This document shows, one piece after another, positions 26,793-59,475 of a stretch of DNA of 64,000 bases. Source of the DNA: Escherichia coli (GTDB lineage: Bacteria > Pseudomonadota > Gammaproteobacteria > Enterobacterales > Enterobacteriaceae). The stretch's first letter is position 1. Every line of letters starts with the position of its first letter. The position numbers were made by a program, and so were the translations under genes. The stretch lies in the NCBI RefSeq assembly GCF_041886205.1, contig NZ_CP169029.1. One strand, 5' to 3'. The notes under the pieces were generated by a model. It saw only the letters and a program-made list of their open reading frames with translations. It was not told the origin of the DNA and made no database searches.

Positions 26793-26793
26793 T

Positions 26794-31334: not shown

Positions 31335-31344
31335 AGGAGAACGC

Positions 31345-32739: not shown

Positions 32740-32896
32740 ATTTGCGACCATTCATAAACTTACTGGATATAATGTTCTAAAAGATTATAATCCTCACACT
32801 AACTGTTAAAGCTGGGGCTGGGCAGCATTGACTACTCAGGGAAGGTACTCATCTTTATCTTGTGTTTCTTACGTAACAACCAGACTAAAGTGATTT

Positions 32897-33892
32897 ATGA
32901 ACGATAACGTTTTGCTCATAGGAGCTTCCGGATTCGTAGGAACCCGACTACTTGAAACGGCAATTGCTGACTTTAATATCAAGAACCTGGACAAACAGCA
33001 GAGCCACTTTTATCCAGAAATCACACAGATTGGTGATGTTCGTGATCAACAGGCACTCGACCAGGCGTTAGCCGGTTTTGACACTGTTGTGCTACTGGCA
33101 GCGGAACACCGCGATGACGTCAGCCCTACTTCTCTCTATTATGATGTCAACGTTCAGGGTACCCGCAATGTGCTGGCGGCCATGGAAAAAAATGGCGTTA
33201 AAAATATCATCTTTACCAGTTCCGTTGCTGTTTATGGTTTGAACAAACACAACCCTGACGAAAACCATCCACACGATCCCTTCAACCACTACGGCAAAAG
33301 TAAGTGGCAGGCAGAGGAAGTGCTGCGTGAATGGTATAACAAAGCACCAACAGAACGTTCATTAACCATCATCCGTCCTACCGTTATCTTCGGTGAACGG
33401 AACCGCGGTAACGTCTATAACTTGCTGAAACAGATCGCTGGCGGCAAGTTTATGATGGTGGGCGCAGGGACTAACTATAAGTCCATGGCTTATGTTGGAA
33501 ACATTGTTGAGTTTATCAAGTACAAACTGAAGAATGTTGCCGCAGGTTACGAGGTTTATAACTACGTTGATAAGCCAGACCTGAACATGAACCAGTTGGT
33601 TGCTGAAGTTGAACAAAGCCTGAACAAAAAGATCCCTTCTATGCACTTGCCTTACCCACTAGGAATGCTGGGTGGATATTGCTTTGATATCCTGAGCAAA
33701 ATTACGGGCAAAAAATACGCTGTCAGCTCTGTGCGCGTGAAAAAATTCTGCGCAACAACACAGTTTGACGCAACGAAAGTGCATTCTTCAGGTTTTGTGG
33801 CACCGTATACGCTGTCGCAAGGTCTGGATCGAACTCTGCAGTATGAATTCGTCCATGCCAAAAAAGACGACATAACGTTTGTTTCTGAGTAA
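32897..33892 (+). CDS. gne: NAD-dependent 4-epimerase of the Gne/Z3206 type (GlcNAc/GalNAc epimerase family)
   Basis: 331-aa SDR ORF MNDNVLLIGASGFVGTRLL with YGKSK catalytic motif; lies between wcaM and galF as in O157/O55-type loci. Confidence 0.75.
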   Translation: MNDNVLLIGASGFVGTRLLETAIADFNIKNLDKQQSHFYPEITQIGDVRDQQALDQALAGFDTVVLLAAEHRDDVSPTSLYYDVNVQGTRNVLAAMEKNGVKNIIFTSSVAVYGLNKHNPDENHPHDPFNHYGKSKWQAEEVLREWYNKAPTERSLTIIRPTVIFGERNRGNVYNLLKQIAGGKFMMVGAGTNYKSMAYVGNIVEFIKYKLKNVAAGYEVYNYVDKPDLNMNQLVAEVEQSLNKKIPSMHLPYPLGMLGGYCFDILSKITGKKYAVSSVRVKKFCATTQFDATKVHSSGFVAPYTLSQGLDRTLQYEFVHAKKDDITFVSE

Positions 33893-34134
33893 TGCAGACG
33901 AGTCAGAGAAAAAAGGACCAGGTTGGACTACGATTATTCGGAAAGAGGTACTGATTAAATTATCAGTATGTGGATTTCCGAGTAATCCGAGTAACCCAGA
34001 TGCTGATGGTGTGTAGTGTTATCGTAAGGTTTAATCAAAGTTATGCGGAACTAAGCTTTGGTATATAGCCATAACGTTTGGCTAACCTATGGCAATAATT
34101 TACGCACTATCAGCCACTTAGAGGTAGGAAAAGA

Positions 34135-35028
34135 ATGACGAATTTAAAAGCAGTTATACCGGTAGCAGGTCTTGGGATGCATATGTTGCCTGCCACTAAG
34201 GCGATTCCCAAAGAGATGCTACCGATCGTCGACAAGCCAATGATTCAGTACATTGTTGACGAGATTGTGGCTGCAGGGATCAAAGAAATCCTCCTGGTAA
34301 CTCACGCGTCCAAGAACGCAGTCGAAAACCACTTCGACACCTCTTATGAATTAGAATCTCTCCTTGAACAGCGCGTGAAGCGTCAACTACTGGCGGAAGT
34401 ACAATCTATCTGTCCGCCGGGCGTGACCATTATGAACGTGCGTCAGGGTGAACCTTTAGGTTTAGGCCACTCCATTTTATGTGCGCGACCTGCCATTGGT
34501 GACAATCCATTTGTCGTGGTGCTGCCAGACGTTGTGATCGACGACGCCAGCGCCGACCCGTTGCGTTACAACCTTGCTGCCATGATTGCGCGCTTCAATG
34601 AAACGGGCCGTAGCCAGGTGCTGGCAAAACGTATGCCGGGTGACCTCTCTGAATACTCCGTCATCCAGACCAAAGAACCGCTGGATCGTGAAGGTAAAGT
34701 CAGCCGCATTGTTGAATTTATCGAAAAACCGGATCAGCCGCAGACGCTGGACTCAGACATAATGGCCGTTGGTCGCTATGTGCTTTCTGCCGATATTTGG
34801 CCGGAACTTGAACGCACTCAGCCTGGTGCATGGGGACGTATTCAGCTGACTGATGCCATTGCTGAACTGGCGAAAAAACAGTCCGTTGATGCCATGCTGA
34901 TGACAGGTGACAGCTACGACTGCGGTAAAAAAATGGGTTATATGCAGGCGTTTGTGAAGTATGGACTACGCAACTTGAAAGAAGGGGCGAAGTTCCGCAA
35001 AGGTATCGAGAAGCTGTTAAGCGAATAA
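34135..35028 (+). CDS. galF: UTP-glucose-1-phosphate uridylyltransferase-like regulatory subunit GalF
   Basis: 297-aa [42 protein letters not shown]. Confidence 0.93.
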
Positions 35029-35254
35029 TGAAAATCTGACCGAATGTAACGGTTGATAAGGAAATAATAACGGCAGTGAAAAACTATAGATCAATAAATA
35101 TCACTGCTGTTGAGCGTTTATAATTAACTATGCTACCAATGAATAAATAGTGTGCAGATATGTATTTTTTGTTTGGTAGTCTTGTTTCTCCCTCTGAATA
35201 ATAAGATAATAAACGCTTGGAGATGATTTTTTTAACATGGATTATCATTTCGTA

Positions 35255-35288
35255 CACTGGTAGCGATTAAGCCAGGGGCGGTAGCGTG
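35255..35288 (+). promoter_or_regulatory. JUMPstart/ops element in the O-antigen cluster leader
   Basis: cactggtagcgattaagccaggGGCGGTAGcgtg; ops core at 35277-35284; second copy of the motif seen upstream of wza. Confidence 0.85.
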
Positions 35289-35346
35289 CATAAATTTTAA
35301 TGCTTATCAAAACTATTAGCATTAAAAATATATAAGAAATTCTCAA

Positions 35347-36129
35347 ATGAACAAAGAAACCGTTTCAATAATTATGCCCGTTTACAATGGGGCCAAAACT
35401 ATAATCTCATCAGTAGAATCAATTATACATCAATCTTATCAAGATTTTGTTTTGTATATCATTGACGATTGTAGCACCGATGATACATTTTCATTAATCA
35501 ACAGTCGATACAAAAACAATCAGAAAATAAGAATATTGCGTAACAAGACAAATTTAGGTGTTGCAGAAAGTCGAAATTATGGAATAGAAATGGCCACGGG
35601 GAAATATATTTCTTTTTGTGATGCGGATGATTTGTGGCACGAGAAAAAATTAGAGCGTCAAATCGAAGTGTTAAATAATGAATGTGTAGATGTGGTATGT
35701 TCTAATTATTATGTTATAGATAACAAAAGAAATATTGTTGGCGAAGTTAATGCTCCTCATGTGATAAATTATAGAAAAATGCTCATGAAAAACTACATAG
35801 GGAATTTGACAGGAATCTATAATGCCAACAAATTGGGTAAGTTTTATCAAAAAAAGATTGGTCACGAGGATTATTTGATGTGGCTGGAAATAATTAATAA
35901 AACAAATGGTGCTATTTGTATTCAAGATAATCTGGCGTATTACATGCGTTCAAATAATTCACTATCGGGTAATAAAATTAAAGCTGCAAAATGGACATGG
36001 AGTATATATAGAGAACATTTATATTTGTCCTTTCCAAAAACATTATATTATTTTTTATTATATGCTTCAAATGGAGTCATGAAAAAAATAACACATTCAC
36101 TATTAAGGAGAAAGGAGACTAAAAAGTGA
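35347..36129 (+). CDS. wbdN: O-antigen glycosyltransferase (GT family 2), O157-type WbdN
   Basis: 260-aa AT-rich ORF; SIIMPVYNG...DDCSTDDT...DADD GT-2 motifs; first gene after JUMPstart. Confidence 0.8.
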   Translation: MNKETVSIIMPVYNGAKTIISSVESIIHQSYQDFVLYIIDDCSTDDTFSLINSRYKNNQKIRILRNKTNLGVAESRNYGIEMATGKYISFCDADDLWHEKKLERQIEVLNNECVDVVCSNYYVIDNKRNIVGEVNAPHVINYRKMLMKNYIGNLTGIYNANKLGKFYQKKIGHEDYLMWLEIINKTNGAICIQDNLAYYMRSNNSLSGNKIKAAKWTWSIYREHLYLSFPKTLYYFLLYASNGVMKKITHSLLRRKETKK

Positions 36130-37310
36130 AGTCAGCGGCTAAGTTGATTTTTTTATTCCTATTTACACTTTATAGTCTCCAGTTGTATGGGGTTATCATA
36201 GATGATCGTATAACAAATTTTGATACAAAGGTATTAACTAGTATTATAATTATATTTCAGATTTTTTTTGTTTTATTATTTTATCTAACGATTATAAATG
36301 AAAGAAAACAGCAGAAAAAATTTATCGTGAACTGGGAGCTAAAGTTAATACTCGTTTTCCTTTTTGTGACTATAGAAATTGCTGCTGTAGTTTTATTTCT
36401 TAAAGAAGGTATTCCTATATTTGATGATGATCCAGGGGGGGCTAAACTTAGAATAGCTGAAGGTAATGGACTTTACATTAGATATATTAAGTATTTTGGT
36501 AATATAGTTGTGTTTGCATTAATTATTCTTTATGATGAGCATAAATTCAAACAGAGGACCATCATATTTGTATATTTTACAACGATTGCTTTATTTGGTT
36601 ATCGTTCTGAATTGGTGTTGCTCATTCTTCAATATATATTGATTACCAATATCCTGTCAAAGGATAACCGTAATCCTAAAATAAAAAGAATAATAGGGTA
36701 TTTTTTATTGGTAGGGGTTGTATGCTCGTTGTTTTATCTAAGTTTAGGACAAGACGGAGAACAAAATGACTCATATAATAATATGTTAAGGATAATTAAT
36801 AGGTTAACAATAGAGCAAGTTGAAAGTGTTCCATATGTTGTTTCTGAATCTATTAAGAACGATTTCTTTCCGACACCAGAGTTAGAAAAGGAATTAAAAG
36901 CAATAATAAATAGAATACAGGGAATAAAGCATCAAGACTTATTTTATGGAGAACGGTTACATAAACAAGTATTTGGAGACATGGGAGCAAATTTTTTATC
37001 AGTTACTACGTATGGAGCAGAACTATTAGTTTTTTTTGGTTTTCTCTGTGTATTCATTATCCCTTTAGGGATATATATACCTTTTTATCTTTTAAAGAGA
37101 ATGAAAAAAACCCATAGCTCGATAAACTGCGCATTCTATTCATATATCATTATGATTTTATTGCAATACTTAGTGGCTGGGAATGCATCGGCCTTCTTTT
37201 TTGGTCCTTTTCTCTCCGTATTGATAATGTGTACTCCTCTGATCTTATTGCATGATACGTTAAAGAGATTATCACAAAATGAAAATATCAGTTATAACTG
37301 TGACTTATAA
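36126..37310 (+). CDS. wzy: O-antigen polymerase Wzy (O157-type)
   Basis: 394-aa highly hydrophobic multi-pass ORF, GTG start, low GC. Confidence 0.78.
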   Translation: MKSAAKLIFLFLFTLYSLQLYGVIIDDRITNFDTKVLTSIIIIFQIFFVLLFYLTIINERKQQKKFIVNWELKLILVFLFVTIEIAAVVLFLKEGIPIFDDDPGGAKLRIAEGNGLYIRYIKYFGNIVVFALIILYDEHKFKQRTIIFVYFTTIALFGYRSELVLLILQYILITNILSKDNRNPKIKRIIGYFLLVGVVCSLFYLSLGQDGEQNDSYNNMLRIINRLTIEQVESVPYVVSESIKNDFFPTPELEKELKAIINRIQGIKHQDLFYGERLHKQVFGDMGANFLSVTTYGAELLVFFGFLCVFIIPLGIYIPFYLLKRMKKTHSSINCAFYSYIIMILLQYLVAGNASAFFFGPFLSVLIMCTPLILLHDTLKRLSQNENISYNCDL

Positions 37311-38025
37311 TAATGCTGAAGGGTTAGAAAAAACTTTAAGTAGTTTATCAATTTTAAAAATAAAACCTTTTGAGATTATTATAGTTGATGGCGGCTCTAC
37401 AGATGGAACGAATCGTGTCATTAGTAGATTTACTAGTATGAATATTACACATGTTTATGAAAAAGATGAAGGGATATATGATGCGATGAATAAGGGTCGA
37501 ATGTTGGCCAAAGGCGACTTAATACATTATTTAAACGCCGGCGATAGCGTAATTGGAGATATATATAAAAATATCAAAGAGCCATGTTTGATTAAAGTTG
37601 GCCTTTTCGAAAATGATAAACTTCTGGGATTTTCTTCTATAACCCATTCAAATACAGGGTATTGTCATCAAGGGGTGATTTTCCCAAAGAATCATTCAGA
37701 ATATGATCTAAGGTATAAAATATGTGCTGATTATAAGCTTATTCAAGAGGTGTTTCCTGAAGGGTTAAGATCTCTATCTTTGATTACTTCGGGTTATGTA
37801 AAATATGATATGGGGGGAGTATCTTCAAAAAAAAGAATTTTAAGAGATAAAGAGCTTGCCAAAATTATGTTTGAAAAAAACAAAAAAAACCTTATTAAGT
37901 TTATTCCAATTTCAATAATCAAAATTTTATTCCCTGAACGTTTAAGAAGAGTATTGCGGAAAATGCAATATATTTGTCTAACTTTATTCTTCATGAAGAA
38001 TAGTTCACCATATGATAATGAATAA
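37279..38025 (+). CDS. wbdO: O-antigen glycosyltransferase (GT family 2), O157-type WbdO
   Basis: 248-aa ORF MKISVITVTYNNAEGL...IVDGGSTDGT; paralogous to wcaE. Confidence 0.8.
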   Translation: MKISVITVTYNNAEGLEKTLSSLSILKIKPFEIIIVDGGSTDGTNRVISRFTSMNITHVYEKDEGIYDAMNKGRMLAKGDLIHYLNAGDSVIGDIYKNIKEPCLIKVGLFENDKLLGFSSITHSNTGYCHQGVIFPKNHSEYDLRYKICADYKLIQEVFPEGLRSLSLITSGYVKYDMGGVSSKKRILRDKELAKIMFEKNKKNLIKFIPISIIKILFPERLRRVLRKMQYICLTLFFMKNSSPYDNE

Positions 38026-39403
38026 AATCAAAAAAATACTTAAATTTTGCACTTTAAAAAAATATGATACATCAAGTGCTTTAGGTAGAGAACAGGAAAG
38101 GTACAGGATTATATCCTTGTCTGTTATTTCAAGTTTGATTAGTAAAATACTCTCACTACTTTCTCTTATATTAACTGTAAGTTTAACTTTACCTTATTTA
38201 GGACAAGAGAGATTTGGTGTATGGATGACTATTACCAGTCTTGGTGCTGCTCTGACATTTTTGGACTTAGGTATAGGAAATGCATTAACAAACAGGATCG
38301 CACATTCATTTGCGTGTGGCAAAAATTTAAAGATGAGTCGGCAAATTAGTGGTGGGCTCACTTTGCTGGCTGGATTATCGTTTGTCATAACTGCAATATG
38401 CTATATTACTTCTGGCATGATTGATTGGCAACTAGTAATAAAAGGTATAAACGAGAATGTGTATGCAGAGTTACAACACTCAATTAAAGTCTTTGTAATC
38501 ATATTTGGACTTGGAATTTATTCAAATGGTGTGCAAAAAGTTTATATGGGAATACAAAAAGCCTATATAAGTAATATTGTTAATGCCATATTTATATTGT
38601 TATCTATTATTACTCTAGTAATATCGTCGAAACTACATGCGGGACTACCAGTTTTAATTGTCAGCACTCTTGGTATTCAATACATATCGGGAATCTATTT
38701 AACAATTAATCTTATTATAAAGCGATTAATAAAGTTTACAAAAGTTAACATACATGCTAAAAGAGAAGCTCCATATTTGATATTAAATGGTTTTTTCTTT
38801 TTTATTTTACAGTTAGGCACTCTGGCAACATGGAGTGGTGATAACTTTATAATATCTATAACATTGGGTGTTACTTATGTTGCTGTTTTTAGCATTACAC
38901 AGAGATTATTTCAAATATCTACGGTCCCTCTTACGATTTATAACATCCCGTTATGGGCTGCTTATGCAGATGCTCATGCACGCAATGATACTCAATTTAT
39001 AAAAAAGACGCTCAGAACATCATTGAAAATAGTGGGTATTTTATCATTCTTATTGGCCTTCATATTAGTAGTGTTCGGTAGTGAAGTCGTTAATATTTGG
39101 ACAGAAGGAAAGATTCAGGTACCTCGAACATTCATAATAGCTTATGCTTTATGGTCTGTTATTGATGCTTTTTCGAATACATTTGCAAGCTTTTTAAATG
39201 GTTTGAACATAGTTAAACAACAAATGCTTGCTGTTGTAACATTGATATTGATCGCAATTCCAGCAAAATACATCATAGTTAGCCATTTTGGGTTAACTGT
39301 TATGTTGTACTGCTTCATTTTTATATATATTGTAAATTACTTTATATGGTATAAATGTAGTTTTAAAAAACATATCGATAGACAGTTAAATATAAGAGGA
39401 TGA
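38012..39403 (+). CDS. wzx: O-antigen flippase Wzx (O157-type)
   Basis: 463-aa polytopic membrane ORF. Confidence 0.8.
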   Translation: MIMNKIKKILKFCTLKKYDTSSALGREQERYRIISLSVISSLISKILSLLSLILTVSLTLPYLGQERFGVWMTITSLGAALTFLDLGIGNALTNRIAHSFACGKNLKMSRQISGGLTLLAGLSFVITAICYITSGMIDWQLVIKGINENVYAELQHSIKVFVIIFGLGIYSNGVQKVYMGIQKAYISNIVNAIFILLSIITLVISSKLHAGLPVLIVSTLGIQYISGIYLTINLIIKRLIKFTKVNIHAKREAPYLILNGFFFFILQLGTLATWSGDNFIISITLGVTYVAVFSITQRLFQISTVPLTIYNIPLWAAYADAHARNDTQFIKKTLRTSLKIVGILSFLLAFILVVFGSEVVNIWTEGKIQVPRTFIIAYALWSVIDAFSNTFASFLNGLNIVKQQMLAVVTLILIAIPAKYIIVSHFGLTVMLYCFIFIYIVNYFIWYKCSFKKHIDRQLNIRG

Positions 39404-39405
39404 AA

Positions 39406-40500
39406 ATGAAATATATACCAGTTTACCAACCGTCATTGACAGGAAAAGAAAAAGAATATGTAAATGAATGTCTGGACTCAACGTGGATTTCATCAAAAGG
39501 AAACTATATTCAGAAGTTTGAAAATAAATTTGCGGAACAAAACCATGTGCAATATGCAACTACTGTAAGTAATGGAACGGTTGCTCTTCATTTAGCTTTG
39601 TTAGCGTTAGGTATATCGGAAGGAGATGAAGTTATTGTTCCAACACTGACATATATAGCATCAGTTAATGCTATAAAATACACAGGAGCCACCCCCATTT
39701 TCGTTGATTCAGATAATGAAACTTGGCAAATGTCTGTTAGTGACATAGAACAAAAAATCACTAATAAAACTAAAGCTATTATGTGTGTCCATTTATACGG
39801 ACATCCATGTGATATGGAACAAATTGTAGAACTGGCCAAAAGTAGAAATTTGTTTGTAATTGAAGATTGCGCTGAAGCCTTTGGTTCTAAATATAAAGGT
39901 AAATATGTGGGAACATTTGGAGATATTTCTACTTTTAGCTTTTTTGGAAATAAAACTATTACTACAGGTGAAGGTGGAATGGTTGTCACGAATGACAAAA
40001 CACTTTATGACCGTTGTTTACATTTTAAAGGCCAAGGATTAGCTGTACATAGGCAATATTGGCATGACGTTATAGGCTACAATTATAGGATGACAAATAT
40101 CTGCGCTGCTATAGGATTAGCCCAGTTAGAACAAGCTGATGATTTTATATCACGAAAACGTGAAATTGCTGATATTTATAAAAAAAATATCAACAGTCTT
40201 GTACAAGTCCACAAGGAAAGTAAAGATGTTTTTCACACTTATTGGATGGTCTCAATTCTAACTAGGACCGCAGAGGAAAGAGAGGAATTAAGGAATCACC
40301 TTGCAGATAAACTCATCGAAACAAGGCCAGTTTTTTACCCTGTCCACACGATGCCAATGTACTCGGAAAAATATCAAAAGCACCCTATAGCTGAGGATCT
40401 TGGTTGGCGTGGAATTAATCTACCTAGTTTCCCCAGCCTATCGAATGAGCAAGTTATTTATATTTGTGAATCTATTAACGAATTTTATAGTGATAAATAG
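39406..40500 (+). CDS. per: GDP-perosamine synthase (DegT/aminotransferase family), Per/RfbE
   Basis: ORF 39400-40500; canonical MKYIPVYQPSLTGKEKEYVNECLDSTWISSKG; PLP-dependent sugar aminotransferase fold. Confidence 0.88.
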   Translation: MKYIPVYQPSLTGKEKEYVNECLDSTWISSKGNYIQKFENKFAEQNHVQYATTVSNGTVALHLALLALGISEGDEVIVPTLTYIASVNAIKYTGATPIFVDSDNETWQMSVSDIEQKITNKTKAIMCVHLYGHPCDMEQIVELAKSRNLFVIEDCAEAFGSKYKGKYVGTFGDISTFSFFGNKTITTGEGGMVVTNDKTLYDRCLHFKGQGLAVHRQYWHDVIGYNYRMTNICAAIGLAQLEQADDFISRKREIADIYKKNINSLVQVHKESKDVFHTYWMVSILTRTAEEREELRNHLADKLIETRPVFYPVHTMPMYSEKYQKHPIAEDLGWRGINLPSFPSLSNEQVIYICESINEFYSDK

Positions 40501-40524
40501 CCTAAAATATTGTAAAGGTCATTC

Positions 40525-41739
40525 ATGAAAATTGCGTTGAATTCAGATGGATTTTACGAGTGGGGCGGTGGAATTGATTTTATTAAATATATTCTGTCAA
40601 TATTAGAAACGAAACCAGAAATATGTATCGATATTCTTTTACCGAGAAATGATATACATTCTCTTATAAGAGAAAAAGCATTTCCTTTTAAAAGTATATT
40701 AAAAGCAATTTTAAAGAGGGAAAGGCCTCGATGGATTTCATTAAATAGATTTAATGAGCAATACTATAGAGATGCCTTTACACAAAATAATATAGAGACG
40801 AATCTTACCTTTATTAAAAGTAAGAGCTCTGCCTTTTATTCATATTTTGATAGTAGCGATTGTGATGTTATTCTTCCTTGCATGCGTGTTCCTTCGGGAA
40901 ATTTGAATAAAAAAGCATGGATTGGTTATATTTATGACTTTCAACACTGTTACTATCCTTCATTTTTTAGTAAGCGAGAAATAGATCAAAGGAATGTGTT
41001 TTTTAAATTGATGCTCAATTGCGCTAACAATATTATTGTTAATGCACATTCAGTTATTACCGATGCAAATAAATATGTTGGGAATTATTCTGCAAAACTA
41101 CATTCTCTTCCATTTAGTCCATGCCCTCAATTAAAATGGTTTGCTGATTACTCTGGTAATATTGCCAAATATAATATTGACAAGGATTATTTTATAATTT
41201 GCAATCAATTTTGGAAACATAAAGATCATGCAACTGCTTTTAGGGCATTTAAAATTTATACTGAATATAATCCTGATGTTTATTTAGTATGCACGGGAGC
41301 TACTCAAGATTATCGATTCCCTGGATATTTTAATGAATTGATGGTTTTGGCAAAAAAGCTCGGAATTGAATCGAAAATTAAGATATTAGGGCATATACCT
41401 AAACTTGAACAAATTGAATTAATCAAAAATTGCATTGCTGTAATACAACCAACCTTATTTGAAGGCGGGCCTGGAGGGGGGGTAACATTTGACGCTATTG
41501 CATTAGGGAAAAAAGTTATACTATCTGACATAGATGTCAATAAAGAAGTTAATTGCGGTGATGTATATTTCTTTCAGGCAAAAAACCATTATTCATTAAA
41601 TGACGCGATGGTAAAAGCTGATGAATCTAAAATTTTTTATGAACCTACAACTCTGATAGAATTGGGTCTCAAAAGACGCAATGCGTGTGCAGATTTTCTT
41701 TTAGATGTTGTGAAACAAGAAATTGAATCCCGATCTTAA
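40525..41739 (+). CDS. wbdP: O-antigen glycosyltransferase (GT family 4-like), O157-type WbdP
   Basis: 404-aa AT-rich ORF between per and gmd. Confidence 0.75.
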
Positions 41740-41758
41740 TATATTCAAGAGGTATATA

Positions 41759-42877
41759 ATGACTAAAGTCGCTCTTATTACAGGTGTAACTGGACAAGAT
41801 GGATCTTATCTAGCTGAGTTTTTGCTTGATAAAGGGTATGAAGTTCATGGTATCAAACGCCGAGCCTCATCTTTTAATACAGAACGCATAGACCATATTT
41901 ATCAAGATCCACATGGTTCTAACCCAAATTTTCACTTGCACTATGGAGATCTGACTGATTCATCTAACCTCACTAGAATTCTAAAGGAGGTACAGCCAGA
42001 TGAAGTATATAATTTAGCTGCTATGAGTCACGTAGCAGTTTCTTTTGAGTCTCCAGAATATACAGCCGATGTCGATGCAATTGGTACATTACGTTTACTG
42101 GAAGCAATTCGCTTTTTAGGATTGGAAAACAAAACGCGTTTCTATCAAGCTTCAACCTCAGAATTATATGGACTTGTTCAGGAAATCCCTCAAAAAGAAT
42201 CCACCCCTTTTTATCCTCGTTCCCCTTATGCAGTTGCAAAACTTTACGCATATTGGATCACGGTAAATTATCGAGAGTCATATGGTATTTATGCATGTAA
42301 TGGTATATTGTTCAATCATGAATCTCCACGCCGTGGAGAAACGTTTGTAACAAGGAAAATTACTCGAGGACTTGCAAATATTGCACAAGGCTTGGAATCA
42401 TGTTTGTATTTAGGGAATATGGATTCGTTACGAGATTGGGGACATGCAAAAGATTATGTTAGAATGCAATGGTTGATGTTACAACAGGAGCAACCCGAAG
42501 ATTTTGTGATTGCAACAGGAGTCCAATACTCAGTCCGTCAGTTTGTCGAAATGGCAGCAGCACAACTTGGTATTAAGATGAGCTTTGTTGGTAAAGGAAT
42601 CGAAGAAAAAGGCATTGTAGATTCGGTTGAAGGACAGGATGCTCCAGGTGTGAAACCAGGTGATGTCATTGTTGCTGTTGATCCTCGTTATTTCCGACCA
42701 GCTGAAGTTGATACTTTGCTTGGAGATCCGAGCAAAGCTAATCTCAAACTTGGTTGGAGACCAGAAATTACTCTTGCTGAAATGATTTCTGAAATGGTTG
42801 CCAAAGATCTTGAAGCCGCTAAAAAACATTCTCTTTTAAAATCGCATGGTTTTTCTGTAAGCTTAGCTCTGGAATGA
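41759..42877 (+). CDS. gmd: GDP-mannose 4,6-dehydratase (O-antigen copy)
   Basis: ORF 41723-42877; canonical start [35 protein letters not shown] (372 aa); paralog of 18550-19671 with different codon usage. Confidence 0.9.
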
Positions 42878-42879
42878 TG

Positions 42880-43845
42880 ATGAATAAGCAACGTATTTTT
42901 ATTGCTGGTCACCAAGGAATGGTTGGATCAGCTATTACCCGACGCCTCAAACAACGTGATGATGTTGAGTTGGTTTTGCGTACTCGGGATGAATTGAACT
43001 TGTTGGATAGTAGCGCTGTTTTGGATTTTTTTTCTTCACAGAAAATCGACCAGGTTTATTTGGCAGCAGCAAAAGTCGGAGGTATTTTAGCTAACAGTTC
43101 TTATCCTGCCGATTTTATATATGAGAATATAATGATAGAGGCGAATGTCATTCATGCTGCCCACAAAAATAATGTAAATAAACTGCTTTTCCTCGGTTCG
43201 TCGTGTATTTATCCTAAGTTAGCACACCAACCGATTATGGAAGACGAATTATTACAAGGGAAACTTGAGCCAACAAATGAACCTTATGCTATCGCAAAAA
43301 TTGCAGGTATTAAATTATGTGAATCTTATAACCGTCAGTTTGGGCGTGATTACCGTTCAGTAATGCCAACCAATCTTTATGGTCCAAATGACAATTTTCA
43401 TCCAAGTAATTCTCATGTGATTCCGGCGCTTTTGCGCCGCTTTCATGATGCTGTGGAAAACAATTCTCCGAATGTTGTTGTTTGGGGAAGTGGTACTCCA
43501 AAGCGTGAATTCTTACATGTAGATGATATGGCTTCTGCAAGCATTTATGTCATGGAGATGCCATACGATATATGGCAAAAAAATACTAAAGTAATGTTGT
43601 CTCATATCAATATTGGAACAGGTATTGACTGCACGATTTGTGAGCTTGCGGAAACAATAGCAAAAGTTGTAGGTTATAAAGGGCATATTACGTTCGATAC
43701 AACAAAGCCCGATGGAGCCCCTCGAAAACTACTTGATGTAACGCTTCTTCATCAACTAGGTTGGAATCATAAAATTACCCTTCACAAGGGTCTTGAAAAT
43801 ACATACAACTGGTTTCTTGAAAACCAACTTCAATATCGGGGGTAA
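42880..43845 (+). CDS. fcl: GDP-L-fucose synthase homolog (O-antigen copy; acts as GDP-4-keto-6-deoxymannose reductase/epimerase family)
   Basis: ORF 42874-43845 [19 protein letters not shown]; paralog of 19674-20639. Confidence 0.88.
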
Positions 43846-43847
43846 TA

Positions 43848-44357
43848 ATGTTTTTACATTCCCAAGACTTTGCCACAATTGTAAGGTCTACTCCTCTTAT
43901 TTCTATAGATTTGATTGTGGAAAACGAGTTTGGCGAAATTTTGCTAGGAAAACGAATCAACCGCCCGGCACAGGGCTATTGGTTCGTTCCTGGTGGTAGG
44001 GTGTTGAAAGATGAAAAATTGCAGACAGCCTTTGAACGATTGACAGAAATCGAACTAGGAATTCGTTTGCCTCTCTCTGTGGGTAAGTTTTATGGTATCT
44101 GGCAGCACTTCTACGAAGACAATAGTATGGGGGGAGACTTTTCAACGCATTATATAGTTATAGCATTCCTTCTTAAATTACAACCAAACATTTTGAAATT
44201 ACCGAAGTCACAACATAATGCTTATTGCTGGCTATCGCGAGCAAAGCTGATAAATGATGACGATGTGCATTATAATTGTCGCGCATATTTTAACAATAAA
44301 ACAAATGATGCGATTGGCTTAGATAATAAGGATATAATATGTCTGATGCGCCAATAA
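43848..44357 (+). CDS. wbdQ: GDP-mannose mannosyl hydrolase homolog (Nudix), WbdQ
   Basis: 169-aa [29 protein letters not shown], paralog of gmm. Confidence 0.85.
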
Positions 44358-45787
44358 TTGCTGTAGTTATGGCCGGTGGTACAGGCAGTCGTCTTTGGCC
44401 ACTTTCTCGTGAACTATATCCAAAGCAGTTTTTACAACTCTCTGGTGATAACACCTTGTTACAAACGACTTTGCTACGACTTTCAGGCCTATCATGTCAA
44501 AAACCATTAGTGATAACAAATGAACAGCATCGCTTTGTTGTGGCTGAACAGTTAAGGGAAATAAATAAATTAAATGGTAATATTATTCTAGAACCATGCG
44601 GGCGAAATACTGCACCAGCAATAGCGATATCTGCGTTTCATGCGTTAAAACGTAATCCTCAGGAAGATCCATTGCTTCTAGTTCTTGCGGCAGACCACGT
44701 TATAGCTAAAGAAAGTGTTTTCTGTGATGCTATTAAAAATGCAACTCCCATCGCTAATCAAGGTAAAATTGTAACGTTTGGAATTATACCAGAATATGCT
44801 GAAACTGGTTATGGGTATATTGAGAGAGGTGAACTATCTGTACCGCTTCAAGGGCATGAAAATACTGGTTTTTATTATGTAAATAAGTTTGTTGAAAAGC
44901 CTAATCGTGAAACCGCAGAATTGTATGTGACTTCTGGTAATCACTATTGGAATAGTGGAATATTCATGTTTAAGGCATCTGTTTATCTTGAGGAATTGAG
45001 AAAATTTAGACCTGACATTTACAATGTTTGTGAACAGGTTGCCTCATCCTCATACATTGATCTAGATTTTATTCGATTATCAAAAGAACAATTTCAAGAT
45101 TGTCCTGCTGAATCTATTGATTTTGCTGTAATGGAAAAAACAGAAAAATGTGTTGTATGCCCTGTTGATATTGGTTGGAGTGACGTTGGATCTTGGCAAT
45201 CGTTATGGGACATTAGTCTAAAATCGAAAACAGGAGATGTATGTAAAGGTGATATATTAACCTATGATACTAAGAATAATTATATCTACTCTGAGTCAGC
45301 GTTGGTAGCCGCCATTGGAATTGAAGATATGGTTATCGTGCAAACTAAAGATGCCGTTCTTGTGTCTAAAAAGAGTGATGTACAGCATGTAAAAAAAATA
45401 GTCGAAATGCTTAAATTGCAGCAACGTACAGAGTATATTAGTCATCGTGAAGTTTTCCGACCATGGGGAAAATTTGATTCGATTGACCAAGGTGAGCGAT
45501 ACAAAGTCAAGAAAATTATTGTGAAACCTGGTGAGGGGCTTTCTTTAAGGATGCATCACCATCGTTCTGAACATTGGATCGTGCTTTCTGGTACAGCAAA
45601 AGTAACCCTTGGCGATAAAACTAAACTAGTCACCGCAAATGAATCGATATACATTCCCCTTGGCGCAGCGTATAGTCTTGAGAATCCGGGCATAATCCCT
45701 CTTAATCTTATTGAAGTCAGTTCAGGGGATTATTTGGGAGAGGATGATATTATAAGACAGAAAGAACGTTACAAACATGAAGATTAA
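44339..45787 (+). CDS. manC: Mannose-1-phosphate guanylyltransferase (O-antigen copy)
   Basis: 482-aa [27 protein letters not shown]; paralog of cpsB. Confidence 0.92.
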
Positions 45788-45790
45788 CAT

Positions 45791-47161
45791 ATGAAATCTT
45801 TAACCTGCTTTAAAGCCTATGATATTCGCGGGAAATTAGGCGAAGAACTGAATGAAGATATTGCCTGGCGCATTGGGCGTGCCTATGGCGAATTTCTCAA
45901 ACCGAAAACCATTGTTTTAGGCGGTGATGTCCGCCTCACCAGCGAAACCTTAAAACTGGCGCTGGCGAAAGGTTTACAGGATGCGGGCGTCGATGTGCTG
46001 GATATCGGTATGTCCGGCACCGAAGAGATCTATTTCGCCACGTTCCATCTCGGCGTGGATGGCGGCATTGAAGTTACCGCCAGCCATAATCCGATGGATT
46101 ATAACGGCATGAAACTGGTGCGCGAAGGGGCTCGCCCAATCAGCGGTGATACCGGACTGCGCGACGTCCAGCGTCTGGCAGAAGCCAACGACTTTCCTCC
46201 CGTCGATGAAACCAAACGCGGTCGCTATCAGCAAATCAACCTGCGTGACGCTTACGTTGATCACCTGTTCGGTTATATCAATGTCAAAAACCTCACGCCG
46301 CTCAAGCTGGTGATTAACTCCGGGAATGGCGCAGCGGGTCCGGTGGTGGACGCCATTGAAGCCCGCTTTAAAACCCTCGGCGCGCCCGTGGAATTGATCA
46401 AAGTGCACAACACGCCCGACGGCAATTTCCCCAACGGTATTCCTAATCCGCTGCTGCCTGAATGCCGCGACGACACCCGCAATGCGGTCATCAAACACGG
46501 CGCGGATATGGGCATTGCCTTTGATGGCGATTTTGACCGCTGTTTTCTGTTTGACGAAAAAGGGCAGTTTATCGAGGGCTACTACATTGTCGGCCTGCTG
46601 GCAGAAGCGTTCCTCGAAAAAAATCCCGGCGCGAAGATCATCCACGATCCGCGTCTCTCCTGGAACACCGTTGATGTGGTGACTGCCGCAGGCGGCACCC
46701 CGGTAATGTCGAAAACCGGACACGCCTTTATTAAAGAACGTATGCGCAAGGAAGACGCCATCTACGGTGGCGAAATGAGCGCCCACCATTACTTCCGTGA
46801 TTTCGCTTACTGCGACAGCGGCATGATCCCGTGGCTGCTGGTCGCCGAACTGGTGTGCCTGAAAGGAAAAACGCTGGGCGAACTGGTGCGCGACCGGATG
46901 GCTGCGTTTCCGGCAAGCGGTGAGATCAACAGCAAACTGGCGCAACCCGTTGAGGCGATTAATCGCGTCGAACAGCATTTTAGCCGTGAGGCGCTGGCGG
47001 TGGATCGTACCGATGGCATCAGCATGACCTTTGCCGACTGGCGCTTTAACCTGCGCTCTTCCAACACCGAACCGGTGGTGCGGTTGAATGTGGAATCACG
47101 CGGTGATGTAAAGCTAATGGAAAAGAAAACTAAAGCTCTTCTTAAATTGCTAAGTGAGTGA
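45791..47161 (+). CDS. manB: Phosphomannomutase (O-antigen copy)
   Basis: 456-aa [18 protein letters not shown]; central ~1.1 kb nearly identical in DNA to cpsG. Confidence 0.92.
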
Positions 47162-47379
47162 TTATTTACATTAATCATTAAGCGTATTTAAGATTATATT
47201 AAAGTAATGTTATTGCGGTATATGATGAATATGTGGGCTTTTTTATGTATAACAACTATACCGCAACTTTATCTAGGAAAAGATTAATAGAAATAAAGTT
47301 TTGTACTGACCAATTTGCATTTCACGTCACGATTGAGACGTTCCTTTGCTTAAGACATTTTTTCATCGCTTATGTAATA

Positions 47380-48370
47380 ACAAATGTGCCTTATATAAAA
47401 AGGAGAACAAAATGGAACTTAAAATAATTGAGACAATAGATTTTTATTATCCCTGTTTACGATATTATAGCCAAAGTTGTATCCTGCATCAGTCCTGCAA
47501 TATTTCACGAGTGCTTTGTTAACTGAATACATGTCTGCCATTTTCCAGATGATAACGACGTCATCACAATTGATGGTAAAACACTTCGGCACACTTATGA
47601 CAAGAGTCGTCGCAGAGGAGTGGTTCATGTCATTAGTGTGTTTCAGCAATGCACAGTCTGGTCCTCGGATAGATCAAGACGGATGAGAAACCTAATGCGT
47701 TCACAGTTATTCATGAACTTTCTAAAATGATGGGTATTAAAGGAAAAATAATCATAACTGATGCGATGGCTTGCCAGAAAGATATTGCAGAGAAGATATA
47801 AAAACAGAGATGTGATTATTTATTCGCTGTAAAAGGAAATAAGAGTCGGCTTAATAGAGTCTTTGAGGAGATATTTACGCTGAAAGAATTAAATAATCCA
47901 AAACATAACAGTTACGCAATTAGTGAAAAGAGGCACGGCAGAGACGATGTCCGTCTTCATATTGTTTGAGATGCTCCTGATGAGCTTATTGATTTCACGT
48001 TTGAATGGAAAGGGCTGCAGAATTTATGAATGGCAGTCCACTTTCTCTCAATAATAGCAGAGCAAAAGAAAGAATCCGAAATGACGATCAAATATTATAT
48101 TAGATCTGCTGCTTTAACCGCAGAGAAGTTCGCCACAGTAAATCGAAATCACTGGCGCATGGAGAATAAGTTGCACAGTAGCCTGATGTGGTAATGAATG
48201 AAATCGACTATAATATAAGAAGGCGAGTTGCATTCGAATGATTTTCTAGAATGCGGCACATCGCTACTAATATCTGACAATGATAATGTATTCAAGGCAG
48301 GATTATCATGTAAGATGCGAAAAGCAGTCATGGACAGAAACTTCCTAGCGTCAGGCATTGCAGCGTGCGG
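47380..48370 (+). mobile_element. H-repeat / ISAs1-family transposase remnant (frameshifted, internally deleted)
   Basis: Broken frames spell MELKIIETID..., [91 protein letters not shown]: collinear with H-rpt (ISAs1) transposases but interrupted by stops. Confidence 0.85.
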
Positions 48371-48423
48371 GCTTTCATAATCTTGCATTGGTTTTGATAA
48401 GATATTTCTTTGGAGATGGGAAA

Positions 48424-49089
48424 ATGAATTTGTATGGTATTTTTGGTGCTGGAAGTTATGGTAGAGAAACAATACCCATTCTAAATCAACAAATAAAGCA
48501 AGAATGTGGTTCTGACTATGCTCTGGTTTTTGTGGATGATGTTTTGGCAGGAAAGAAAGTTAATGGTTTTGAAGTGCTTTCAACCAACTGCTTTCTAAAA
48601 GCCCCTTATTTAAAAAAGTATTTTAATGTTGCTATTGCTAATGATAAGATACGACAGAGAGTGTCTGAGTCAATATTATTACACGGGGTTGAACCAATAA
48701 CTATAAAACATCCAAATAGCGTTGTTTATGATCATACTATGATAGGTAGTGGCGCTATTATTTCTCCCTTTGTTACAATATCTACTAATACTCATATAGG
48801 GAGGTTTTTTCATGCAAACATATACTCATACGTTGCACATGATTGTCAAATAGGAGACTATGTTACATTTGCTCCTGGGGCTAAATGTAATGGATATGTT
48901 GTTATTGAAGACAATGCATATATAGGCTCGGGTGCAGTAATTAAGCAGGGTGTTCCTAATCGCCCACTTATTATTGGCGCGGGAGCCATTATAGGTATGG
49001 GGGCTGTTGTCACTAAAAGTGTTCCTGCCGGTATAACTGTGTGCGGAAATCCAGCAAGAGAAATGAAAAGATCGCCAACATCTATTTAA
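48424..49089 (+). CDS. wbdR: Perosamine N-acetyltransferase (hexapeptide-repeat), WbdR
   Basis: ORF 48358-49089; start set at MNLYGIFGAGSYGRE; hexapeptide-repeat acetyltransferase; last gene of the O cluster before gnd. Confidence 0.8.
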   Translation: MNLYGIFGAGSYGRETIPILNQQIKQECGSDYALVFVDDVLAGKKVNGFEVLSTNCFLKAPYLKKYFNVAIANDKIRQRVSESILLHGVEPITIKHPNSVVYDHTMIGSGAIISPFVTISTNTHIGRFFHANIYSYVAHDCQIGDYVTFAPGAKCNGYVVIEDNAYIGSGAVIKQGVPNRPLIIGAGAIIGMGAVVTKSVPAGITVCGNPAREMKRSPTSI

Positions 49090-49289
49090 AGGGAATGCGG
49101 AAACACGTTCCAAATGGGACTAATGTTTAAAATATATATAATTTCGCTAATTTACTAAATTATGGCTTCTTTTTAAGCTATCCTTTACTTAGTTATTACT
49201 GATACAGCATGAAATTTATAATACTCTGATACATTTTTATACGTTATTCAAGCCGCATATCTAGCGGTAACCCCTGACAGGAGTAAACA

Positions 49290-50696
49290 ATGTCAAAGCA
49301 ACAGATCGGCGTAGTCGGTATGGCAGTGATGGGGCGCAACCTAGCGCTCAACATCGAAAGCCGTGGTTATACCGTCTCTATTTTCAACCGCTCCCGTGAG
49401 AAGACGGAAGAAGTGATTGCCGAAAATCCAGGCAAGAAACTGGTTCCTTACTATACGGTGAAAGAGTTTGTTGAATCTCTGGAAACGCCTCGTCGCATCC
49501 TGTTAATGGTGAAAGCAGGTGCAGGCACGGATGCTGCTATTGATTCCCTCAAGCCGTACCTCGATAAAGGTGACATCATCATTGATGGTGGTAACACCTT
49601 CTTCCAGGACACCATTCGTCGTAACCGTGAGCTTTCTGCCGAAGGCTTTAACTTCATCGGTACCGGTGTTTCCGGCGGAGAAGAAGGCGCGCTGAAAGGT
49701 CCTTCCATTATGCCTGGTGGGCAGAAAGAAGCCTATGAACTGGTTGCGCCGATCCTGACCAAAATCGCCGCAGTGGCTGAAGACGGTGAGCCATGCGTTA
49801 CCTATATTGGTGCCGATGGCGCAGGTCACTATGTGAAGATGGTTCACAACGGTATTGAATACGGAGATATGCAACTGATTGCTGAAGCCTATTCTCTGCT
49901 TAAAGGTGGCCTGAACCTCACCAACGAAGAACTGGCGCAGACGTTTACCGAGTGGAATAACGGTGAACTGAGCAGCTACCTGATCGACATCACCAAAGAT
50001 ATCTTCACCAAAAAAGATGAAGACGGTAACTACCTGGTTGATGTGATCCTGGATGAAGCGGCTAACAAAGGTACCGGTAAATGGACCAGCCAGAGCGCAC
50101 TGGATCTCGGCGAACCGCTGTCGCTGATTACCGAGTCTGTGTTTGCACGTTATATCTCTTCTCTGAAAGATCAGCGTGTTGCCGCATCTAAAGTTCTCTC
50201 TGGCCCGCAAGCACAGCCAGCAGGCGACAAGGCTGAGTTCATCGAAAAAGTTCGCCGTGCGCTGTATCTGGGCAAAATCGTTTCTTACGCCCAGGGCTTC
50301 TCTCAGCTGCGTGCTGCGTCTGAAGAGTACAACTGGGATCTGAACTACGGCGAAATCGCGAAGATTTTCCGTGCTGGCTGCATCATTCGTGCGCAGTTCC
50401 TGCAGAAAATTACCGATGCTTATGCCGAAAATCCGCAGATCGCTAACCTGCTGCTGGCTCCGTACTTCAAGCAAATTGCCGATGATTACCAGCAGGCGCT
50501 GCGTGATGTCGTTGCTTATGCGGTACAGAACGGTATCCCGGTTCCGACCTTCGCCGCTGCGGTTGCCTATTACGATAGCTACCGTGCCGCTGTTCTGCCT
50601 GCGAACCTGATCCAGGCACAGCGTGACTATTTCGGTGCACATACTTATAAGCGCATTGATAAAGAAGGTGTGTTCCATACTGAATGGCTGGATTAA
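49290..50696 (+). CDS. gnd: 6-phosphogluconate dehydrogenase, decarboxylating
   Basis: 468-aa [30 protein letters not shown]. Confidence 0.95.
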
Positions 50697-50723
50697 TCTG
50701 ATTTAACCAACAGTAAAATTGAG

Positions 50724-50755
50724 GCCCGGCGTATATTGCACCGGGCTTTTTTTTG
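50724..50755 (+). terminator. Rho-independent terminator after gnd
   Basis: gcccggcgtatattgcaccgggc hairpin followed by a T9 run. Confidence 0.75.
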
Positions 50756-50935
50756 CCATTTATCTTATAGACTAAATTTCACTGCTTAATATTAACTTAA
50801 TAAATATCAGCTATTCTTATAAAGAAAATCTGAATTGTTTTTCGTAGCGTTGACCAGCTAATAACGTAGCGTTAAAACATTTAGCTCTTATCAGGATGCT
50901 AAAAACATCATGATTCACAGTTAAGTTAATTCTGA

Positions 50936-52111
<1,176 letters not shown>

Positions 52112-52120
52112 CATCTTGTT

Positions 52121-52143
52121 ATCAGGGCGATTTTCGCCCTGAT
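52121..52143 (+). terminator. Hairpin downstream of ugd (terminator-like)
   Basis: atcagggcgattttcgccctgat perfect 9-bp stem; weak T tract. Confidence 0.45.
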
Positions 52144-52254
52144 TGTCTGATGTTCCCTTTGTAATAATTCATTATTTTTATCATTTATCCTATAGCATTC
52201 ATGGCGATTATCGCTAAACTATGGCGACTTAAAATTATTTCGTCCGTTAGGGTA

Positions 52255-53235: not shown

Positions 53236-53252
53236 TCTTTGCAGCTTTAAAG

Positions 53253-53290
53253 AAAACGGGCAGGGTGGTGACACCTTGCCCGTTTTTTTT
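53253..53290. terminator. Bidirectional rho-independent terminator between convergent wzz and hisI
   Basis: aaaacgggcagggtggtgacaccttgcccgtttttttt: GC stem flanked by A-run and T-run. Confidence 0.8.
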
Positions 53291-53331
53291 GCCGGATGCG
53301 ACAACAACATCGCATCCGCTTACCCCGCAAC

Positions 53332-54278: not shown

Positions 54279-59475
<5,197 letters not shown>

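Follow-up and report, generated by a model that had tools for sequence, protein, structure and literature searches.

Gene content of the galF-gnd locus

Within the window, i.e., the whole stretch of 64,000 nucleotides of Escherichia coli DNA analysed here, the interval between galF and gnd contains, 3′ of a JUMPstart/ops element, 13 collinear units that are all encoded on the + strand, in the order wbdN-wzy-wbdO-wzx-per-wbdP-gmd-fcl-wbdQ-manC-manB-(ISAs1 remnant)-wbdR. Gene content and order are thereby borne out exactly as the first-pass annotation had listed them. The starts of per (39,406), gmd (41,759) and wbdR (48,424) are shifted slightly relative to the raw ORF calls. The references in the following list are O157:H16 Res13-Lact-PEA12-26 (NZ_CP062876.1; here Res13) and O157:H7 Sakai.

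32,897-33,892, + strand: gnu (older name gne; Z3206 homologue), Und-PP-GlcNAc 4-epimerase (RefSeq product name; 331 aa; 0 aa differences vs Sakai and O157:H16)
34,135-35,028, + strand: galF, left flanking gene (Pfam NTP_transferase; 18 nt differences vs O157:H16)
35,251-35,288, + strand: JUMPstart with ops, RfaH loading site (Rfam RF01707, 39.9 bits vs gathering score 35)
35,347-36,129, + strand: wbdN, GT2 beta-1,3-glucosyltransferase, Glc onto GalNAc-PP-Und (Pfam Glycos_transf_2, 3e-35; H226Y vs both references)
36,126-37,310, + strand: wzy, O157 O-antigen polymerase (TIGR04370, 44.7 bits, cut-off 40; 0 nt differences vs Res13)
37,279-38,025, + strand: wbdO, GT2, putative alpha-1,4-L-fucosyltransferase (Pfam Glycos_transf_2, 9e-15; 0 aa differences vs references)
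38,012-39,403, + strand: wzx, O157 O-unit flippase (Pfam MatE, NCBIfam WZX_like; S344L vs RefSeq "O157 family O-antigen flippase")
39,406-40,500, + strand: per (rfbE), GDP-perosamine synthase, PLP-dependent aminotransferase (Pfam DegT_DnrJ_EryC1, 4e-128)
40,525-41,739, + strand: wbdP, GT4, putative alpha-1,3-N-acetylperosaminyltransferase (Pfam Glycos_transf_1, 6e-13; 0 aa differences vs references)
41,759-42,877, + strand: gmd (TIGR01472, 588 bits, above cut-off; 0 nt differences vs O157:H16)
42,880-43,845, + strand: fcl (NF047922 Fcl, 539 bits, above cut-off; 0 nt differences vs O157:H16)
43,848-44,357, + strand: wbdQ, Nudix GDP-mannose mannosyl hydrolase (NF011963, 277 bits, cut-off 146)
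44,339-45,787, + strand: manC, mannose-1-phosphate guanylyltransferase / mannose-6-phosphate isomerase (TIGR01479, 779 bits)
45,791-47,161, + strand: manB, phosphomannomutase, colanic-acid type (all four PGM_PMM Pfam domains; GC 0.54)
47,449-48,380, + strand: ISAs1-family (H-repeat / ISEc1) transposase remnant, pseudogene, between manB and wbdR (annotated in both references)
48,424-49,089, + strand: wbdR (RefSeq name perB), GDP-perosamine N-acetyltransferase (Pfam Hexapep, PglD_N; 0 aa differences vs Sakai, L36F vs O157:H16)
49,290-50,696, + strand: gnd, O157:H16 allele (0 nt differences vs Res13, 51 vs Sakai)
50,954-51,408, + strand: right recombination junction, 5′ part of ugd (left side O157:H16-like, right side JMF1-like; for strain JMF1 see below)

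Each of the 12 cluster genes is full length and free of internal stops, and outside ManB every protein differs from Sakai or Res13 by at most one amino acid. The DNA of the ISAs1 remnant is about 84.5% identical to that of intact ISAs1/ISEc1 transposase genes and has stops in all three frames; RefSeq describes the remnant as carrying a frameshift and an internal stop and lacking its N terminus, and in Sakai it is annotated as "ISEc1 Family: ISAs1 partial".

The segment 35,029-49,289 forms a single gap-free alignment, at 99.6-99.7% identity, to O157 clusters in 305 of 5,426 complete E. coli genomes, and these 305 carry genes annotated as O157 wzx/wzy. Megablast matches to the wzy-wzx DNA are confined to the same genomes; in the remaining ones, matches to the cluster are limited to manB or the ISAs1 remnant. 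The previous assignment to O157 held when Wzx, Wzy and Per were compared for a match to another serogroup: the amino-acid sequences of Wzy and Per equal those of the "O157 family O-antigen polymerase" and the "GDP-perosamine synthase RfbE/PerA" of Res13, and Wzx is one residue off the O157 RefSeq protein. The O157 allele of rfbE, the standard O157 typing target, is thus present. The pathways to GDP-PerNAc and GDP-Fuc (manB, manC, gmd, fcl, per, wbdR) are complete, and the three glycosyltransferases are intact as well. Family searches found no ABC-transporter (wzm/wzt) or synthase genes among the 12 cluster genes, just Wzx and Wzy.

The substitutions H226Y in WbdN and S344L in Wzx are non-synonymous and absent from both references. 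They would be compatible with a silent or altered cluster (with a rough phenotype or a changed O unit), brought about by these private changes or by a defect elsewhere; wecA, waaL and rfaH are not encoded in the 64-kb window, nor is the core type. We consider such a cluster very unlikely, as all reading frames are intact, function is rarely lost through single conservative changes, and the two changes have persisted: an independent public assembly (GCA_036254195.1) has the identical cluster except for 1 difference over 18.5 kb, so H226Y and S344L are not sequencing errors. That either substitution in itself alters the O unit is a little less probable again.

Transcription signals

The ops motif, GGCGGTAGCGTG, occupies positions 35,277-35,288 of the + (non-template) strand, 59 bases 5′ of the wbdN ATG, and occurs twice in the window vs 0.1 times expected by chance. 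Upstream of JUMPstart we found no convincing sigma-70 promoter; the best site there (35,173-35,202) agrees at 9 of 12 positions. Across 34,900-49,400, 65 promoter-like sites were detected vs 58.6 in shuffles, and no promoter is claimed; the terminator scan of the same interval yielded 11 terminator-like sites vs 8.5. A promoter 5′ of JUMPstart would give rise to one long transcript, along which RfaH recruited at ops would suppress termination across the AT-rich operon, a mechanism well established in operons with ops.

Relationship to O157:H16 and O157:H7

Over 35,029-45,790, the sequence differs by 4 SNPs from Res13 and by 16 from Sakai. Across the entire 35,029-49,289, only 6 SNPs outside manB separate it from Res13 (99.97% identity), although the adjacent flanks are 2-3% different. 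Identity of the O157:H16 type begins at the 3′ end of galF, where 18 differences within the gene are followed by none from 35,029, and reaches to about 51,408; differences resume at 51,409. Flanks 5′ of 35,029 and past 51,409 differ from Res13 by 2-10%. The per gene, with no nucleotide difference from Res13 rfbE and one from Sakai, is therefore of the "Sakai type" (Iguchi et al. 2011, PMC3158064).

The first-pass annotation took the cluster to identify the serogroup background, which is right as far as the O157 cluster goes but does not extend to an O157:H7 background. If the window came from the EHEC O157:H7 lineage, the cluster would mark a Shiga-toxin-producing pathogen background, and its 99.6% identity to Sakai, EDL933 and other O157:H7 strains fits this. 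However, the H7-lineage gnd allele and flanks are absent: gnd shows 51 differences from Sakai and none from O157:H16, and the flanks to either side are 2-7% divergent from those of Sakai. Furthermore, no O157:H7 genome is among the best flank matches, and the closest backbone belongs to JMF1, an O142 strain (O142 wzx/wzy). Because gnd allele and flanking sequence are non-H7, an O157:H7 origin was rejected as highly improbable. By these comparisons, the background is a non-H7 strain that acquired the cluster by recombination. With such an O157:H16-like cluster and gnd, an rfbE/wzx/wzy PCR or an in-silico serotyper would call "O157" for a strain outside the EHEC O157:H7 lineage.

Base composition

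The GC content is 0.34 in 35,029-49,289 vs 0.51 in the rest of the window. In 500-base windows it ranges from 0.28 to 0.43 over 35,000-45,999 and from 0.35 to 0.38 over 47,000-48,999, flanked by galF (34,500-34,999) at 0.52 and gnd at 0.51. Leaving out manB, the island has a mean of 0.342 and a maximum of 0.416 (n = 25), compared with a mean of 0.515 outside the island (sd 0.047, n = 99). GC3 of the island genes lies between 0.22 and 0.37 vs 0.54 in both galF and gnd. Sliding windows and GC3 therefore agree with the AT-rich island and distinct codon usage noted before, but the AT-richness is not uniform, since manB is GC-rich and cpsG-like (GC 0.54, GC3 0.615). In the case of manC, a GC content of 0.376 identifies an island-type copy, not the colanic-acid type.

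Extent of the recombined segment

Outside the island, the flanks (colanic-acid cluster and his operon) are 97-99.9% identical to E. coli genomes. Compared with JMF1, the nearest backbone relative, identity is 99.73% over 5,000-22,390 and 97.2% over 23,900-35,028. There are 70 differences over 49,270-50,953, then 1 over 50,954-54,275 and 2 over 57,600-64,000. The last difference on the right side of the island is at 50,953, and the right junction lies within ugd (50,954-51,408). Relative to JMF1, about 28.6 kb (22,391-50,953) have been replaced. A donor for the segment from 22.4 to 35 kb was sought among the 5,426 complete E. coli genomes, where the best match reached just 97.8%; with no close relative for this segment, the mosaic may stem from one import of 28.6 kb or from several separate events.

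These alignments indicate that homologous recombination brought in the cluster as part of a fragment exceeding the island and that gnd travelled with it. The boundaries originally proposed, 35,255-49,089, are thus apt in that the first falls on JUMPstart and the second on the wbdR stop codon, but the recombined DNA reaches further, and so does the functional gene set, with gnu upstream and wzz downstream. Horizontal acquisition, also proposed at first, is supported by the composition, by near-identity to O157:H16 beside flanks that differ by 2-3%, and by the near-identical O142 backbone outside 22.4-50.95 kb. Across O157 lineages, the phylogeny of the cluster has been reported to conflict with that of the genome (PMC3158064). 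All E. coli O-antigen clusters at this locus are AT-rich, so composition alone dates no transfer, yet the alternative of an ancestral locus shaped by local mutational bias or by selection, with no horizontal acquisition, can practically be dismissed, because the cluster occurs in only 305 of 5,426 genomes and its flanks in nearly all, it is almost identical between strains whose flanks differ by 2-5%, the junctions at about 35,029 and 50,954-51,408 are sharp, and the near-identical backbone has an O142 cluster instead.

Altogether, the locus is almost certainly a complete and apparently functional, Wzx/Wzy-dependent O157 O-antigen cluster of the "Sakai-type", non-H7 (O157:H16-like) kind, situated at the galF-gnd site of a backbone close to that of an O142 strain.

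On the right flank, the his operon contains an unnaturally degraded stretch at about 54,276-57,500, which is most likely a sequence artefact. A foreign insertion was considered for this stretch and rejected: it has no match in E. coli genomes, yet it is collinear with his (z = 27 over shuffles).

Probable gene conversion between cpsG and manB

The exceptional composition of manB coincides with 97.7% identity to the window's own colanic-acid cpsG (23,973-25,344), upstream of which lies an algC RNA motif. Over 46,010-47,091 (1.08 kb), the two genes differ by a single base, at 46,447, a pattern that suggests recent gene conversion. Compared with manB of other O157 strains, in contrast, there are 37 differences (Res13) or 38 (Sakai). 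In strains with a single copy (24AR0142 and an O20:H12 strain, among others), cpsG is 99.4-99.8% identical to the tract, and manB genes of other O157 strains are about 3% off; conversion in the reverse direction, from manB to cpsG, was rejected on these grounds. The evidence points to the resident colanic-acid cpsG, 22 kb upstream, as having replaced at least 1.08 kb of manB after the cluster had arrived.

A more specific history may be proposed, namely a recent serogroup switch in which a single event exchanged about 28.6 kb of a JMF1-like O142 backbone, bringing in gnu, galF, the O157 cluster and gnd along with half of the colanic-acid cluster. The cpsG-to-manB conversion, at least 1.08 kb long, would have followed very recently. 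For this full sequence of events we see the chances as evenly balanced. If true, it would be a clean natural case in which concerted evolution followed the replacement of an O antigen, though still one more example of processes that are on record for O157 (PMC3158064).

Predicted assembly of the O unit

Pathway roles of the O157 gene products have been described (PMC7685785, PMC3682973). ManB, ManC and Gmd would supply the intermediate GDP-4-keto-6-deoxymannose, which Fcl would convert to GDP-L-fucose, and Per followed by WbdR to GDP-N-acetylperosamine. WecA, encoded elsewhere, would form Und-PP-GlcNAc, to be epimerised by Gnu to Und-PP-GalNAc, the first sugar; this function of Gnu and its supply of Und-PP-GalNAc for O157 are documented (PMC3682973, PMC7685785). 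Although required for the O157 unit, gnu is located upstream of galF, outside 35,255-49,089. WbdN would then add beta-1,3-Glc, in line with the biochemistry of Gao et al. 2012 as cited in PMC7685785. WbdO probably is the alpha-1,4-L-fucosyltransferase, as GT2 is an inverting family, and WbdP probably the alpha-1,3-N-acetylperosaminyltransferase, as GT4 is a retaining family; they would add alpha-L-Fuc and alpha-D-PerNAc, respectively. The resulting tetrasaccharide unit would be flipped by Wzx and polymerised by Wzy, with the chain length set by Wzz (52,2xx-53,235).

Comparison with known systems

The cluster is textbook biology and not a new system, as the first-pass annotation had correctly judged; both the manB/cpsG conversion and large-fragment transfer in O157 were described by Iguchi et al. 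2011 (PMC3158064). The locus illustrates three known processes, i.e., large-fragment O-antigen switching, hitch-hiking of gnd and manB-cpsG concerted evolution, and opens no new question.

Res13 has the same 12 genes and ISAs1 remnant, ordered and spaced alike, as well as an identical gnd, and its differences in manB stem from the lineage-specific cpsG conversion found here. Sakai and EDL933 share the organisation of the cluster, which Wang and Reeves reportedly set out for O157:H7 in 1998. The amino-acid sequences of Per, WbdO, WbdP, Gmd, Fcl, WbdQ and WbdR are identical between Sakai and the cluster described here, but the genomic background is another one. Beyond E. coli O157, Per-based GDP-perosamine pathways exist in Salmonella enterica O30, Vibrio cholerae O1, Brucella and Yersinia enterocolitica O9, which show serological cross-reaction with O157.

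Inside the window, the colanic-acid genes gmd-fcl-gmm-cpsB-cpsG (about 18,550-25,344) are the counterpart, as they likewise encode GDP-mannose and GDP-fucose enzymes that are paralogous to those of the O157 cluster. However, colanic-acid gmd-fcl-gmm and the AT-rich O-antigen gmd-fcl-wbdQ are only 71.7% identical, and cpsB and manC gave no BLAST alignment at E 1e-10. Within the O157 cluster, it is manB alone that is of the colanic-acid type.

Gene content and identity of the O157 O-antigen cluster

The island between galF and gnd, read in the first-pass annotation as the O157 O-antigen cluster (35,255-49,089), contains a train of ORFs with exactly the content and order listed there. Family scans returned, in order, a GT2, a TIGR04370 repeat-unit polymerase (match exceeding the model cut-off), a second GT2, a MatE/Wzx-like flippase, a DegT-family aminotransferase and a GT4, followed by Gmd, Fcl, a Nudix GDP-mannose mannosyl hydrolase, ManC, a four-domain phosphomannomutase and a hexapeptide acetyltransferase. 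For per, gmd and wbdR, mechanical ORF starts (39400, 41723 and 48358) give longer ORFs than the annotated starts (39,406, 41,759 and 48,424), and wzz is annotated with 325-326 aa vs a 344-aa ORF (mechanical start 52201); the island coordinates are unaffected by these shifts. The proposed JUMPstart was independently confirmed by Rfam, and the leader comprises the following features:

35,251-35,288, JUMPstart, Rfam RF01707, 39.9 bits vs a gathering score of 35
35,277-35,288, ops motif GGCGGTAGCGTG, inside JUMPstart

A second, stronger JUMPstart/ops (57.3 bits) is located at 9318-9356, where it precedes wza and heads the colanic-acid cluster.

We searched 5,426 complete E. coli genomes by megablast with 35,029-49,289 as the query. 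A single full-length alignment with 99.6-99.7% identity was obtained in 305 of them, including the O157:H7 reference Sakai, EDL933 and O157:H16 strains; the remaining genomes matched only manB (as its colanic-acid paralogue cpsG) or the ISAs1 remnant. RefSeq names in the matched genomes include “O157 family O-antigen polymerase”, “O157 family O-antigen flippase”, “GDP-perosamine synthase RfbE/PerA” and “GDP-perosamine N-acetyltransferase”. In a gene-by-gene comparison, all cluster genes were full length without internal stops. The amino-acid sequences of Wzy, WbdO, Per, WbdP, Gmd, Fcl, WbdQ and ManC are the same as in the O157:H16 reference strain Res13-Lact-PEA12-26 (NZ_CP062876.1; Res13), and single changes occur in WbdN (H226Y), Wzx (S344L) and WbdR (L36F, the Sakai state). 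A check for Wzx, Wzy or Per matching another serogroup found no such case: Wzy and Per are the same as in Res13 and Wzx carries only S344L, so that, judged from sequence, the assignment to serogroup O157 stands.

Base composition and conversion of manB

The GC content is 0.52 at the 3′ end of galF (34,500-34,999), drops sharply to 0.28-0.36 across 35,000-41,999, runs at 0.36-0.43 to 45,999 and at 0.35-0.38 at 47,000-48,999, and is ~0.51 again in gnd. In windows of 500 bases, the mean is 0.342 inside the island without manB (maximum 0.416, n=25) vs 0.515 outside (sd 0.047, n=99), which bears out the AT-richness noted initially. The distinct codon usage is real as well, because GC3 is 0.22-0.37 in the island genes vs 0.54 in both galF and gnd. 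AT-richness extends to all genes of the island except manB (45,791-47,161), the sole exception, with a GC of 0.54, a GC3 of 0.615 and 500-base windows of up to 0.56 GC (n=2).

O-antigen manB and the window's own cpsG (23,973-25,344) are 97.7% identical. Ten mismatches fall within the gene's first 219 bases and 21 within its last 70, and only one, at 46,447, in gene positions 220-1,301 (window 46,010-47,091). At 46,447, the window manB has T, whereas C is found in every copy of cpsG and manB that was compared, as well as in L007, an independent public assembly (GCA_036254195.1, contig JAYLPW010000014.1); T is therefore a SNP private to the window. Across 18.5 kb (35,791-54,275), L007 differs at no other position, and the sequence of the island is therefore reliable. 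Over the central 950 bases, manB has 31-32 differences from H16 and Sakai manB, and within H16 and Sakai the strain's own manB and cpsG differ at 22-30 positions. The tract matches cpsG at 99.8% in A12, 2018-05-5CC and 24AR0142 and at 99.4% in an O20:H12 strain, and several of these genomes hold one gene copy only. Being near-identical to cpsG, also in such single-copy genomes, the tract thus represents a circulating colanic-acid allele, and manB was the recipient of conversion by cpsG. Conversion by cpsG explains both the GC-rich patch within the island and why, of the 43 mismatches that separate 35,029-50,953 from Res13, 37 are concentrated in manB. For O157 manB in general, conversion by cpsG is also the conclusion of Iguchi et al. 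(PMC3158064), citing Samuel et al.

An algC RNA motif (78 bits) lies at 23919-23968, directly upstream of cpsG; O-antigen manB cannot be preceded by one because it starts only 4 bases past the end of manC.

Subtype, background and extent of the replaced block

Outside manB, we counted 6 differences from Res13 across 35,029-49,289 (4 in 35,029-45,790 and 2 in 47,162-49,289) and 16 from Sakai across 35,029-45,790. Gene per differs from Res13 and Sakai at 0 and 1 positions, and gnd at 0 and 51, respectively. The cluster belongs to the “Sakai type” of Iguchi et al. (PMC3158064), which was found in eae-negative H16, H43 and H10 strains. An O157:H7 lineage background was rejected on gnd and flanking sequence; cluster and gnd are O157:H16-like.

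No complete genome matches the flanks better than about 98% overall, a ceiling that turns out to reflect a mosaic. The nearest backbone relative, the O142 strain JMF1, carries O142 wzx/wzy in its galF-gnd locus. Identity to JMF1 is 99.73% over 5,000-22,390, with 1 difference over 50,954-54,275 and 2 over 57,600-64,000, but only 97.2% over 23,900-35,028. On the right side, JMF1 differences end at 50,953 and O157:H16 differences restart at 51,409, which places the crossover in the 5′ part of ugd. On the left side, divergence from JMF1 starts at ~22,391, within colanic-acid cpsB, and O157:H16-type identity starts only at 35,029. A close relative of the 22.4-35 kb segment was not found among complete E. 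coli genomes (best 97.8%); therefore, either its donor has not been sampled or it is a mosaic itself. By these boundaries, ~28.6 kb (22,391-50,953, from within cpsB into the 5′ part of ugd) are replaced relative to JMF1, in one event or several. Horizontal acquisition, as read in the first-pass annotation, is supported, but the replaced block is larger than the 35,255-49,089 given there.

Further divergence from JMF1 was observed at 1-5000 (dgcE/yegE region, minus strand ORF 23-3334; 9-35 differences per kb), which forms a further recombination patch at the window's left edge; the colanic-acid cluster holds smaller patches near 13 kb and 15-16 kb. Four tandem copies of naRNA4 (REP/BIME-type, Rfam), ~96 bases apart, lie between wzxC and wcaK (28358-28717, minus strand) and cause offset self-alignments against JMF1. 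At the same intergenic site, REP copy number varies, coinciding with recombination junctions (Iguchi et al., PMC3158064).

A degraded his segment outside the island

The stretch at ~54,276-57,500 (minus strand), comprising the 5′ part of hisF, hisA, hisH, hisB and the 3′ end of hisC, is abnormal. Within 54,276-56,650, BLAST found no match to the his operon or any E. coli genome (n=5,426), no HisA or HisH similarity was detectable and ORFs are fragmented. This part is collinear with the JMF1 his region (global alignment z = 27 over shuffles), with flat ~60% identity, many indels and a length of 2,375 bases vs 2,428. From 56,650 to 57,500, identity to collinear E. coli sequence is ~72-91%, again with many indels, and both outer edges of the segment jump abruptly to ~100%. 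In L007, hisF, hisA, hisH and hisB are intact. Natural decay was rejected, as 40% divergence stands beside perfectly conserved neighbours; most likely, the segment reflects an artefact of sequence quality or assembly, or an artificial corruption of this copy, not biology. The anomaly has no effect on the O157 cluster.

Proposed function

Organised as a standard Wzx/Wzy-dependent O-antigen operon, the locus has intact genes, an ops/JUMPstart leader, gnu upstream and wzz downstream. As a functional set, 35,255-49,089 includes the cluster genes but not gnu. Transcription would start from a promoter upstream of 35,251, with RfaH as the presumed anti-terminator at ops; a consensus promoter scan around the cluster was uninformative. 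The beta-1,3-glucosyltransferase activity of WbdN has been characterised biochemically (Gao et al. 2012, as cited in PMC7685785). Donor and product anomeric configurations suggest that WbdO (GT2, inverting) acts as the alpha-L-fucosyltransferase and WbdP (GT4, retaining) as the alpha-D-PerNAc transferase. The unit is flipped by Wzx and polymerised by Wzy, with chain length regulated by Wzz (PMC7685785).

Comparison with published O157 clusters

The cluster and its organisation, AT-richness, H-repeat remnant, hitch-hiking of gnd and manB/cpsG gene conversion have all been published for O157, and nearly identical O157 clusters are widespread in unrelated lineages via large-fragment transfer whose junctions lie in the wca and his flanks (PMC3158064, PMC7685785). 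The first reading, which itself held this to be known biology, identified the cluster correctly, and its interpretation is supported with four refinements: the converted GC-rich manB, the non-H7 background, the larger transferred block and the position of gnu outside the coordinates. Specific to this window is the combination of an O157:H16-type cluster and gnd on an O142-like backbone with a very fresh conversion tract.
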